From contig MFTH01000015.1 of NCBI GenBank assembly GCA_001786765.1, forward strand, positions 1,548 through 65,547: a DNA stretch of 64,000 bases. Reading direction: 5' to 3'. The position numbers and the translations under genes were made by a program. Under the pieces are notes generated by a model, which worked only from the letters and a program-made list of their open reading frames with translations, did not search any database and was not told where the DNA came from. The stretch is from Candidatus Nomurabacteria bacterium RIFCSPHIGHO2_01_FULL_37_25 (lineage in GTDB: Bacteria > Patescibacteriota > Minisyncoccia > Phycocordibacterales > UBA9973). Within the stretch, counting starts at the first letter, position 1; every line of letters starts with the position of its first letter. Shown piece by piece: positions 27,862-29,385 of this stretch.

Positions 27862-28815
27862 ATGTCTAAAAAAATATCATTATCAGGTATACAACCTTCA
27901 GGGAAACCACATATTGGTAATTATTTTGCCATGATGAAGCAACTAGTAGACCAACAGGAAGAATATGATGTCTATGCTCTTATTGTTGACTATCATGCAA
28001 TGAAATCAGTAAAAAATCCAAAAGTAATGAAAGAAAATATAATAAATGTTGTACTTGATTATTTAGCAATAGGCCTCGACCCAGAAAAAGTAACTTTCTT
28101 TAAACAAAGCGATGTCTCCGAACACACGGAGCTTTGTTGGATTTTTGACACTATTACCACAATGCCATACTTGATGCGCGCGCACGCTTTCAAAGATGCG
28201 CAAGCAAAGAACAAAGAAATTGATGTTGGAACTTTTAATTATCCAGTATTAATGGCGGCTGATATTTTACTCTATAACCCAGATATAATCCCAGTGGGCG
28301 CAGATCAGAAACAACATGTAGAAATAGCGCGAGACATAGCAGAAAAATTCAATAATAACTTTGGTCAAACTTTTAAACTACCTGAAGCGGTGATAATGAA
28401 AGATGTGGCAGTTGTGCCGGGAACCGACGGACGAAAAATGAGCAAAAGTTACAATAACACAATTCCTCTTTTTTCTGAATATGAAGAAATTAAAAAAATA
28501 GTAATGAGTATTGTTACAGATTCAAAAGAGGGAATTCCCAAAAATGTCTATGCAATACACAATCTACTTCGTCCAGCAACAGAGCTTCTGCCTTTATATG
28601 AAAGTAAGGCTGGAAAATATAAGGAATTGAAAGAATTATTGATAGAAGATTTAGAAAAATTTATTGCGCCGCTAAGAGAAAAGCGGAAAGAATTTGCAAA
28701 GGATATTCCAAAAGCTCTGGCAATACTAAAAACAGGCGGCAAAAAAGCTAAAAAAATTGCATCTCTCAAAATGAATGAAGTGCGAGAAAAAATTGGAGTA
28801 AATGTTTATGAGTAA
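27862..28815 (+). CDS. trpS: tryptophanyl-tRNA synthetase
   Basis: HIGN (PSGKPHIGNY) and KMSKS motifs; about 317 aa. Confidence 0.9.
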   Translation: MSKKISLSGIQPSGKPHIGNYFAMMKQLVDQQEEYDVYALIVDYHAMKSVKNPKVMKENIINVVLDYLAIGLDPEKVTFFKQSDVSEHTELCWIFDTITTMPYLMRAHAFKDAQAKNKEIDVGTFNYPVLMAADILLYNPDIIPVGADQKQHVEIARDIAEKFNNNFGQTFKLPEAVIMKDVAVVPGTDGRKMSKSYNNTIPLFSEYEEIKKIVMSIVTDSKEGIPKNVYAIHNLLRPATELLPLYESKAGKYKELKELLIEDLEKFIAPLREKRKEFAKDIPKALAILKTGGKKAKKIASLKMNEVREKIGVNVYE

Positions 28816-28831
28816 TTTCAATAATACAAAT

Positions 28832-28853
28832 ATCAGCGTACTAGTATGCTGAT
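28832..28853 (+). promoter_or_regulatory. 22-bp perfect palindrome ATCAGCGTACTAGTATGCTGAT, candidate TrpR-family operator and/or trpS terminator stem
   Basis: Contains the ACTAGT core of the classical trp operator half-sites; lies 15 nt upstream of the TrpR-like ORF. Confidence 0.45.
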
Positions 28854-28867
28854 ATTTAAAAAATAAA

Positions 28868-29152
28868 ATGAAAAATAATTCTGATCAATACAAAAAGGAA
28901 TTAATTGAAGTAATTTATAAAATTGCCAAAAACAAACAACTTTTGGCGGATTTTATTAGAGATATATTAACGCCTAGAGAATTTGAAAATATTGGAGTAC
29001 GTTGGCAGATAGTGAAGCGTTTGGCAAAAGGGGAGCATCAGACAGCTATTGCGGAAGACCTACATCTTGGAGTAGCGACAGTCACGCGTGGCTCCCGCGA
29101 GATGCGTAAAAAAGAAGGAGGGTTTAGACGCACTCTCAAGATTATCAAATAA
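28868..29152 (+). CDS. TrpR-family (YerC/YecD-like) transcriptional regulator
   Basis: 94 aa; ...LTPREFENIGVRWQIVKRLAKGEHQTAIAEDLHLGVATVTRGSRE fits the TrpR/YerC HTH pattern. Confidence 0.65.
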   Translation: MKNNSDQYKKELIEVIYKIAKNKQLLADFIRDILTPREFENIGVRWQIVKRLAKGEHQTAIAEDLHLGVATVTRGSREMRKKEGGFRRTLKIIK

Positions 29153-29167
29153 AAGTTATCCACATGT

Positions 29168-29198
29168 GAGCAAGTTTTATCCTTGCTTTTATTTTTTA
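29168..29198 (+). terminator. rho-independent terminator (gagcaag..cttgc + TTTTATTTTTT)
   Basis: Stem 29170-29174/29182-29186 followed by a T-run; 16 nt after the TrpR-like stop. Confidence 0.6.
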
Positions 29199-29206
29199 TA
29201 TATACT

Positions 29207-29222
29207 AGCATACTAGTATGCT
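29207..29222 (+). promoter_or_regulatory. second ACTAGT-centred palindrome AGCATACTAGTATGCT
   Basis: Perfect 16-bp palindrome sharing the core CATACTAGTATG with the one at 28832-28853. Confidence 0.4.
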
Positions 29223-29385
29223 GATAATAAGAAAGTTAAAGATTAATAAAGTATATAAAGTATGCGAAGTATGTAAAATCAGAAAATCTTGGTGGGGCGC
29301 AGAGCTTGATGCTTTTGCGCTGTTCTGTTGATTTCTTCAGTCCCTAGAACCTAACCTAGGCACTAACCTATAAGGAATCCATTAA

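Follow-up and report, generated by a model that had tools for sequence, protein, structure and literature searches.

The 64,000-nucleotide (nt) stretch of DNA analyzed here (the window), from a groundwater bacterium with a tiny genome (Candidatus Nomurabacteria), contains, directly downstream of the tryptophan–tRNA ligase gene trpS, a gene for a 94-amino-acid (aa) TrpR-like protein, two palindromes that bracket this gene (sites 1 and 2), and an RNA element starting at site 2 that encodes a short peptide with tandem Trp codons. Judged from its sequence and conservation, the locus probably operates as a two-layered tryptophan switch, in which TrpR bound to tryptophan (holo-TrpR) blocks initiation at site 2, an attenuator governed by the Trp-Trp leader peptide gates the transcripts, and site 1 mediates autoregulation of trpR. 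The comparison comprised the window and 33 species-level orthologous loci from relatives (L001–L033), 34 sequences together. A preliminary description of this DNA had pointed to the TrpR-like gene and the two palindromes as a regulator with candidate operators; its coordinates and gene calls (the trpS stop codon, the TrpR-like open reading frame (ORF), the terminator, and both palindrome positions) were re-read and are correct. The features on which the argument depends are the following.

27862–28815, plus strand: trpS, tryptophan–tRNA ligase (TIGR00233, 291 bits; Pfam tRNA-synt_1b, 1.3e-63), with its stop codon at 28813–28815.
28828–28857, no strand: site 1, a 30-base-pair (bp) palindrome with one mismatched pair, halves AAATATCAGCGTACT and AGTATGCTGATATTT, ending 10 nt short of the trpR ATG.
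28868–29152, plus strand: trpR-like gene, 94 aa, TrpR family (Pfam PF01371, TIGR01321, PDB sequence match, AlphaFold2 (AF2)/Foldseek).
29156–29164, plus strand: TTATCCACA, equal to the DnaA-box consensus, a promoter element conserved 18 nt upstream of the −35 box, at −62 to −54.
29168–29198, plus strand: intrinsic terminator of trpR, a hairpin (29168–29188) followed by a T-run.
29183–29218, plus strand: putative promoter, with −35 box TTGCTT (29183–29188), 17 nt, −10 box TAGCAT (29206–29211), 6 nt, and ATG at 29218.
29200–29229, no strand: site 2, predicted operator ATATACTAGCATACTAGTATGCTGATAATA, spanning about −14 to +12 of the promoter.
29218–29331, plus strand: leader-peptide ORF of 37 codons, MLIIRKLKINKVYKVCEVCKIRKSWWGAELDAFALFC, with tandem Trp codons at 29290–29295 and stop codon TGA at 29329–29331.
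29294–29322, plus strand: regions 1 (29294–29305, GGGGCGCAGAGC) and 2 (29311–29322, GCTTTTGCGCTG) forming the 1:2 hairpin, directly 3′ of the Trp codons.
29327–29382, plus strand: long-range helix P3, GTTGATTTCTT (29327–29337, holding the leader stop codon) with AAGGAATCCAT (29372–29382), enclosing a variable insert.
29385–29420, plus strand: regions 3 and 4, an intrinsic terminator, AGTGGCGC-AACGAA-GCGCCACT (29385–29406) with the tail ATTTTGTTCTTTGG.

Profile searches and structure prediction indicate that the 94-aa ORF encodes a true TrpR-fold protein. The sequence matches PF01371 (Trp_repressor) with an E value of 3.7e-16 and 59.4 bits (cut-off, 27), with residues 11–91 aligning with profile positions 5–85 of 88; its best NCBIfam match is TIGR01321, over 1–90 of 94 positions, and its best PDB sequence match is Escherichia coli TrpR (8e-7). 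The AF2 model (predicted local distance difference test score, 91.7) shows the all-helical architecture of the family, with six helices of which D and E form the helix-turn-helix, and the top Foldseek matches of the model are all E. coli TrpR (1zt9, 1tro, and 1trr, operator complexes included), with template-modeling (TM) scores of 0.82–0.84 and root-mean-square deviations of 2.2–2.4 Å. The residues with which TrpR reads DNA are present on alignment: helix E (E. coli Gly78–Ser86) is G-V-A-T-V-T-R-G-S in the window protein, and the family pattern is G-[IV]-A-T-[IV]-T-R-G-S. Across homologues from the Candidate Phyla Radiation (CPR), Thr81 and Arg84 are invariant, and conservation reaches 90% or more at Gly78, Ala80, Thr83, and Gly85. 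In the corepressor pocket, Thr44, Arg54, Arg84, and Gly85 are kept. The exact protein is on record from Candidatus Nomurabacteria, alongside more than 100 cluster representatives at 80%–90% identity. The second TrpR-like gene pointed out earlier (35848–36246) is borne out as a YerC/YecD-type paralogue, scoring 64.1 bits on TIGR02531 against a cut-off of 42.2; the 94-aa protein reaches only 21.2 bits on the same model, which places the two genes in different subfamilies.

The palindromes are not quite as they had been described. Both had been called perfect, which holds for site 2, with its 16-mer AGCATACTAGTATGCT at 29207–29222, but not for site 1, whose inner segment ATCAGCGTACTAGTATGCTGAT (28832–28853) contains one non-complementary pair, G28838 opposite T28847. 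The two were also said to share CATACTAGTATG; site 1 has CGTACTAGTATG instead, and the exact sequence common to both is the 16-mer TACTAGTATGCTGATA (28839–28854 and 29211–29226). Site 1, which lies in the 52-nt trpS–trpR spacer, has a central CTAG (28841–28844) with TCAG and CTGA 8 bp to either side, in the register TCAG-N4-CTAG-N4-CTGA. In site 2, two CTAG boxes 8 bp apart (29205–29208 and 29213–29216) are followed by CTGA (29221–29224). Within the window, perfect 16-mer palindromes number 5, compared to 2.3 ± 1.6 in dinucleotide shuffles, and are not rare. The case for operators is decided by conservation across species rather than by statistics within the window. Palindromes of 30 bp with at most one mismatch number 2, compared to 0.05 in shuffles; the only one besides site 1 is CTTGTAAATAAGAAATTTCTTATTTACAAG (33518–33547), located between one ORF that ends at 33528 and another that starts at 33549. 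ACTAGT was also considered as an over- or underrepresented restriction-type site and ruled out, its count being at expectation (8 versus 8.3).

Site 2 is present in all 33 relatives, 38–122 nt past the trpR stop codon and with at most one mismatch in its 12-mer core (consensus cTTGcTTT.tTTTTtatatATACTAgCATACTAGTATGaTgaTAtt), in intergenic DNA that is unalignable around it. Site 1 occurs in about 14 of the 33 loci, 20–42 nt upstream of trpR, and is missing where trpS and trpR abut or overlap. Over approximately 200 kb of loci, more than 40 exact copies of the 12-mer were counted against approximately 0.02 expected (an estimate from base composition), nearly all of them flanking trpR, and hits with at most one mismatch likewise lie almost all beside trpR. 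An exact-pattern scan of metagenomes for the 20-mer TCAGCRTACTAGTATGSTGA returned 32 contigs, in 13 of which trpS and/or a TrpR gene adjoins the motif; the trpS–trpR spacers of metagenome contigs also hold site 1. Two of these 13 (L047 and L065) encode proteins with 46% tblastn identity to the window protein, bracketed by two palindromes as in the window.

The motif also follows TrpR genes over greater distances. Four more-distant CPR TrpR genes, from homologues at approximately 35%–45% identity, each carry it in their own promoter, in the form CTAG-N4-CTAG or CTAG-N4-CTGA, between or over the −35 and −10 boxes. The promoter of the trpR-trpB-trpA operon of L066, TTGATA-17-TAGTAT-6-ATG, contains GTACTAGTATACTAGTATG, and the motif stands between −35 and −10 in the trpR promoters of L068 (TTGACA-ctgtaCTAGtatgCTAG-TATAGT) and L070 (TTGATT-ttgtaCTAGtacgCTGA-TATACT). 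Together with the fold, the reading helix, the presence of site 2 in every locus, and a CTAG spacing like that of E. coli, these motifs support the earlier proposal that the palindromes are TrpR operators, as far as sequence comparison can support it. The suggestion that trpS might be controlled as well is not supported: no CATACTAGTATG-like site lies upstream of trpS in any of the 33 loci, and trpS has its own promoter of leaderless type (TGTTAAAAT, 6 nt, ATG), with no operator upstream.

Site 2 overlaps the putative promoter. All 34 sequences have a −35-like TTGNNT in one fixed alignment column, at a constant distance from site 2, and in the window the 3′ arm of the trpR terminator doubles as this box. 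The ATG at 29218 sits inside the palindrome, 6 nt past the −10 box, and its A would be the +1 position, so the mRNA would be leaderless. The same arrangement of −10 box, 6 nt, and ATG is shared with the distant trpR genes. Among 65 long ORFs in the window, 18.5% have TANNNT exactly 6 nt before the ATG, often as TGnTAnnnT, compared to 3% of background ATGs, and only 3% have Shine–Dalgarno (SD)-like motifs upstream; leaderless mRNAs are thus apparently the norm in this genome, trpS included. Strong AGGAGG sites precede genes internal to attenuator transcripts. Further upstream, of 23 trp-promoter copies with an exact TTATCCACA, 22 have this 9-mer 17–19 nt before the −35 box, whether it falls inside the trpR coding sequence or past its stop codon.

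Starting at the same ATG, an in-frame ORF of 25–51 codons is found in 27 of the 34 sequences, 26 of them with W[WR] and one, L003, with a lone W; the L007 leader fits when read by eye in the adjacent register, and L005 is cut by the end of its contig. These leaders begin with M[ML]I[LV], have a middle that varies in sequence and length, and end with a tail SWWGA...AFALFC before the stop codon. All 24 measured distances from ATG to TGG[TC]GG are multiples of three, and at the stop column TGA, TAG, and TAA interchange. The preserved frame, spacers divisible by three, and synonymous stops argue for translation of the ORF, tandem Trp codons included, as a leader peptide. The earlier idea that the palindromes might control downstream small-peptide genes thereby takes a stronger form, in which site 2 is predicted to overlap both the promoter and the start codon of a Trp-codon leader.

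By its sequence and pairing potential, the element after site 2 is a trpL-type attenuator. An alignment of 29 elements was folded with RNAalifold, and ribosome-masked folds were computed for 25 sequences. Region 2 (GCTTTTGCGCT as written for the 29-element alignment) pairs with region 1, the RNAalifold pairs running from 20–54 to 27–47, and pair 20–54 is GC in 10 sequences, GU in 9, and AU in 6. Region 3 resembles region 1, which makes it an alternative pairing partner for region 2; this 2:3 duplex is stronger than its shuffles in 23 of 29 sequences (median z, −2.9). The 2:3 duplex and P3 together make up the antiterminator, in which 92% of alignment cells are paired, compared to 39%–52% in slid controls, and seven pairs show compensatory changes. 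The corresponding values for the 3:4 terminator are 89.6% and four pairs, and covariation of columns 20, 54, 154, and 171 extends across all three pairings. A conserved GTTCTTTG downstream of the terminator leads into the SD sequence of the next ORF. Of the 25 sequences, 24 form the terminator when folded freely, 23 do so with a ribosome at the stop codon, and 7 with a ribosome stalled at the second Trp codon; 18 of the 25 switch from terminator to antiterminator in the masked folds. No further copies of the attenuator were found in a search of the window.

A second, paralogous leader element lies approximately 430 nt further on (29605–29836). Its promoter, TTATCCACA-8-TTTACA-16-TAGATT-6-GTG, leads at 29656 into a leaderless ORF with a GTG start and a run of Phe and Tyr codons (29656–29736, MNKKLQANKIFFFNYFSKTRELIFAL, containing IFFFNYF), followed by alternative helices, a terminator, GTTCTTTGGAGG, and a 52-aa Cys-rich ORF (29838–29996). 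Homologues of this FFF leader are found in L011 (4522) and L023 (4106), and the L023 copy precedes a prephenate dehydratase gene (Pfam PDT, 1e-35), which provides independent support for the use of leader-peptide attenuation in this lineage. With a ribosome placed on FFF, the window copy switches from terminator to antiterminator; the L011 and L023 copies keep the terminator in the same test.

From the sequence, its conservation, the reading frames, and the covariation, we infer that TrpR binds DNA with tryptophan as its corepressor, where transcription starts, that ribosomes stall, and in which direction regulation runs, together giving the following model. The 94-aa protein would be a tryptophan-activated repressor with both palindromes as its operators. 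On site 2, across the −10 box and the start point, holo-TrpR would exclude RNA polymerase, probably as tandem dimers on the CTAG/CTAG/CTGA boxes 8 bp apart; this register would fit the tandem-dimer binding seen in PDB entry 1trr. The transcript would be leaderless, its first codon the AUG inside the operator, and would carry a pair of neighboring Trp codons just 5′ of region 1. Under a shortage of charged tRNA-Trp, a ribosome would stall on UGG-UGG and mask region 1, region 2 and the P3 strand would pair with the complementary P3 strand and region 3 to form the antiterminator, and polymerase would read through. When tryptophan is plentiful, the ribosome would reach the stop codon inside the 5′ strand of the antiterminator, and regions 3 and 4 would form the terminator at 29385–29406; if translation does not occur at all, the 1:2 hairpin would form and the terminator would again result. 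The net effect would be a two-tier induction upon tryptophan starvation, by relief of repression and by relief of attenuation. At site 1, TrpR would most likely limit its own synthesis, either by acting on a weak internal promoter or by blocking transcription that reads through from trpS.

Several observations weigh against this model. The TIGR01321 score of the 94-aa protein, 45.7 bits, is below the equivalog cut-off of 67.25, which makes it a member of the TrpR family without certifying it as an E. coli-type orthologue. Relative to E. coli TrpR, its corepressor pocket has Glu in place of Ser88, and helix D has Thr in place of Arg69 and Ala in place of Lys72. In the E. coli protein, Arg69 and Lys72 contact DNA, and their replacement is consistent with the different bases beside the CTAG boxes. 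Site 1 is absent from about half of the relatives, and no recognizable −35 box was found for it in the window (L001 has TTGACA-18-CAGCAT there, which is not general). Site 2 is conserved in part for other reasons, as its right arm doubles as coding sequence (M-L/M-I-L/V) and its left portion forms the −10 box. In 19 of the 32 metagenome contigs with the 20-mer (GC content 0.33–0.56), no trpR or trpS is nearby, and the neighboring genes are unrelated to tryptophan. At equilibrium, the window's own element keeps the terminator even with region 1 masked (−30.2 versus −22.8 kcal/mol); it switches only when folded co-transcriptionally, before region 4 exists, to an antiterminator at −25.6 kcal/mol. 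A position upstream of tryptophan-synthesis genes is seen in relatives (trpB and trpE) and not in the window, where homologues of trpB, trpE, the amino-acid racemase, and prephenate dehydratase are all absent, as is any trp gene, over the 64 kb. Finally, a Trp-rich peptide, such as that encoded downstream, is paradoxical as cargo induced by tryptophan starvation.

Some of these points lend themselves to other explanations of the palindromes. Site 2 might be conserved solely as a core promoter and the start of a leaderless ORF, with no repressor and with attenuation acting alone: TAGCAT, the ATG, and the codons ATG-MTG-ATA-TTA all fall within the conserved block, and leaderless starts are common in the genome. 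However, this leaves unexplained both the dyad symmetry and the invariant ATACTAG upstream of the −10 box. The motif, moreover, is found again at site 1, which has neither such an ORF nor such a promoter, in a different register in distant trpR promoters (between −35 and −10 in L068 and L070), and in the orphan 20-mers, and we regard the explanation as unlikely. The orphan 20-mers beside unrelated genes could instead mean that a different factor binds the palindromes, with the adjacency to trpR being historical, and the YerC/YecD paralogue or another CPR-wide protein might supply it, a second TrpR-family gene being present in the window. Against such a factor, which we consider quite unlikely, the motif tracks TrpR genes across approximately 35%–45% sequence divergence, always in or beside their promoters, and CTAG boxes 8 bp apart are the signature of E. 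coli TrpR. The paralogue itself has Ala for Thr83 and Ile for Gly85 in its reading helix and a different palindrome, ACTAAAGTACTTTAGT, in its own promoter.

Two further alternatives assign the sequences to RNA. The palindromes could act as hairpins (terminators, processing sites, or stabilizers) rather than as DNA sites: both can fold as stable stems, and site 1 adjoins the 3′ end of trpS, with which a copy remains in L032, where trpR is 1.9 kb away. Yet neither palindrome is called terminator-like and neither is followed by a T-run, which disposes of the terminator stems that the preliminary description had considered; trpR already has a terminator at 29168–29198; the putative start point falls within site 2, so the RNA downstream would hold only half of it; and what is conserved is an exact sequence with a CTAG core, free of compensatory stem changes. 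Hairpins as the function of the palindromes are thus extremely improbable. Very unlikely, too, is that the RNA after site 2 is an untranslated riboswitch that senses a ligand or a tRNA, of a T-box-like kind with a UGGU/UGGC motif. A conserved structure, a terminator, and variable cargo genes would suit such an element, and, on our reading of the alignment, pairing of TGG[TC]GG with the GCCA end of tRNA-Trp is possible in principle. However, no Rfam family reaches its gathering score in the window, and at E ≤ 10 the interval 29150–30100 yields only chance matches (snoR104, RsaF, and the like), none to a T-box. There is no Stem I or specifier upstream; the 5′ part is approximately 50–80 nt of variable, A-rich sequence that keeps an open frame, with all spacers divisible by three and TGA, TAG, or TAA at the stop. 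The sister element exchanges WW for FFF and precedes a pheA-like prephenate dehydratase gene. A riboswitch with the closing helix CUUGGUGG/CCAUUAAG, or a T-box-like element reading through UGGN, was considered and rejected: U-to-C variants (TGGCGG) are uncompensated, RNAalifold favors P3, and TGGTGG is a pair of in-frame Trp codons.

The genes that follow the operator–leader–attenuator unit (the cassette) differ between genomes, and the cassette is better conserved than this cargo. In the window, the cargo is as follows.

29440–29549, plus strand: SD sequence AGGAGG (29440–29445), 4 nt, Trp-rich 10-codon mini-ORF MLWDIEEWFI with its stop codon (29450–29482), hairpin (29482–29510), and terminator (29519–29549).

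The mini-ORF is predicted to be the last element of a tryptophan-starvation-induced unit. It was considered as a second attenuator; its terminator persists in every modeled ribosome state at all four loci, and because it persists wherever the ribosome is placed, the mini-ORF is treated as cargo. Other Trp-rich mini-ORFs, with a strong SD sequence and then an unconditional terminator, encode MLWDPEWC in L017, MWWPWFWWI in L027, and MGWSSLDDWWCLGL in L012. In L017, aspS follows the unit, apparently, by sequence reading, on its own promoter, which leaves no enzyme gene in that unit. Enzyme cargo is found elsewhere: trpB after the cassette in L002 and L004 (TIGR00263, 584–597 bits) and, by N-terminal sequence only, in L033; trpE in L015; and an amino-acid racemase in L020 and L021, translated straight from the operator ATG. 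The remaining cargo consists of proteins of 220–370 aa without assigned identity, 50–70-aa proteins, several with a C-terminal Gly-Trp, and the Trp-rich mini-ORFs.

It is conceivable, if rather doubtful, that in Nomurabacteria that lost tryptophan synthesis the cassette has become a free-standing sensor of tryptophan starvation with a non-enzyme output. That output could be the attenuator RNA, the leader peptide, Trp-rich micropeptides such as MLWDIEEWFI and MWWPWFWWI, or small proteins with Gly-Trp tails, acting in trans or as episymbiotic signals, with the same TrpR serving a wider, CPR-wide regulon marked by the orphan palindromes. The orphan 20-mers may mark either a broader TrpR regulon or another role for the motif. 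Several of them, on contigs among L035–L064, lie 10–90 nt upstream of genes for paralogous Cys-rich proteins of approximately 580 aa (CxxC...FYEKxKVPPPTxCPxCR), and others lie in apparent trmD–sodA spacers of higher-GC contigs, as judged by N-terminal sequences.

The closest parallel for the locus is the trp system of E. coli; the promoter, operator, and trpL sequence used for the comparison matches 5,422 genomes at 100% identity. CTAG boxes 8 bp apart are common to the E. coli operator, ACTAGTTAACTAGTAC, and the site in the window, ACTAGCATACTAGTAT, both of which overlap the promoter. The systems are alike in the TrpR fold, reading helix, and corepressor arginines, in an operator over the −10 box and start site, in two adjacent Trp codons, in mutually exclusive 1:2, 2:3, and 3:4 helices, and in an intrinsic terminator. 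The trpR gene of E. coli is autoregulated, as site 1 would provide for here. In contrast to E. coli, the leader mRNA in the window is predicted to be leaderless with its AUG inside the operator, and the leaders have 25–51 codons rather than 14. The antiterminator contains the stop codon and a long-range helix around a variable insert, and there is no match to the Rfam Trp_leader covariance model. The operator flanks are CATACTAG rather than GAACTAG/GTACTAG, and Arg69 and Lys72 are absent from the repressor. Finally, trpR stands between trpS and the cassette, and the cargo is often not a trp gene. A similar comparison applies to the sister element: in E. coli, pheL, a leader with Phe codons, lies upstream of pheA, much as the L023 homologue of the FFF leader lies before prephenate dehydratase, whereas the window copy of that leader is leaderless with a GTG start and has the 52-aa Cys-rich ORF, not pheA, as cargo.

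Chlamydia trachomatis trpRBA (PMC7755916) shares with the present locus a host-dependent setting with reduced biosynthesis, a trpR directly upstream of a regulatory intergenic region and trpBA, and repression by a tryptophan-responsive TrpR with a further attenuation layer between trpR and trpB; the CPR locus L066 even has the same gene order, trpR-trpB-trpA. The second layer in Chlamydia involves the iron-dependent repressor YtgR (PMC7755916), whereas here it would be an RNA attenuator with its own TrpR-controlled promoter, and linkage to trpS and cargo other than trp genes are features of the CPR loci alone. Leaderless regulatory small ORFs are described for polycysteine leaders in mycobacteria (10.1101/834739) and for Deinococcus deserti (PMC4007540). 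They too are short ORFs with codon runs of the sensed amino acid that control downstream genes; they concern other phyla and another amino acid, and the abstracts of these reports make no mention of a repressor operator that overlaps the start codon. A cassette like that of the window, closed by a terminator and lacking a trp gene, has a precedent in Sinorhizobium meliloti trpL, whose released attenuator RNA and peptide (rnTrpL and peTrpL) act beyond the adjacent gene (PMC6614838, PMC7298713), although S. meliloti trpL still precedes trpE(G), and there is no evidence of trans action for the locus described here.

A literature search aimed at CPR, Patescibacteria, and Nomurabacteria found no description of this operator or of ribosome-mediated attenuation; the one related statement concerns the TrpRS-A operons mentioned below (PMC5370408). 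New here are the fusion of operator, −10 box, +1 position, and start codon; an antiterminator architecture unlike that of E. coli; the linkage of the cassette to trpS–trpR; and a variable, often non-trp, cargo. Gene regulation in CPR bacteria is almost unstudied because the organisms are uncultured, and this locus offers a fully specified circuit of repressor, two operators, promoter, leaderless leader peptide, antiterminator, and terminator. It suggests that classical two-tier tryptophan control of the E. coli style exists, in compacted form, in a very distant and genome-reduced lineage. The stronger conservation of the cassette relative to its cargo points to tryptophan supply as a key signal for these host-dependent cells and flags a set of small proteins and micropeptides as starvation induced. 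For annotation of such genomes, the analysis yields rules: leaderless starts 6 nt after TANNNT, leader peptides that gene callers miss, and a TrpR motif usable for regulon prediction.

Further observations concern neighboring and paralogous genes. In six relatives (L006, L017, L023, L026, L030, and L033), the trpS gene beside trpR is divergent, its product having 32%–36% identity to the window TrpS, and the order of trpS, trpR, and cassette is unchanged. The divergent genes may be linked to the non-canonical tryptophanyl-tRNA synthetase (TrpRS) genes of CPR, where some TrpRS-A operons have a gene for a trp repressor at their head (PMC5370408). The YerC/YecD gene has its own perfect palindrome, ACTAAAGTACTTTAGT (36263–36278), over the −35 box and spacer of a leaderless TTGACT-17-TAAAGT-6-ATG promoter (36308–36246, minus strand), and a 95-aa ORF (36373–36660) lies opposite this promoter; ACTAAAGTACTTTAGT is a candidate for a separate operator. 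The element TTATCCACA occurs in the window at 299–307, 29156–29164, 29605–29613, and 36300–36308 (minus strand), the last two copies lying 8 nt upstream of the −35 box of the Phe-leader promoter and 18 nt upstream of that of the YerC/YecD gene, respectively; DnaA and the YerC/YecD protein are candidates for binding this element. Lastly, an island of approximately 750 bp (approximately 35000–35750) with 54%–60% GC in a genome of 35% GC encodes a 201-aa protein (35143–35751, minus strand), which is paralogous to the 154-aa ORF at 30616–31080 (31% identity; E, 4e-18). Neither paralogue has a Pfam match, and the island looks like a recent foreign acquisition.

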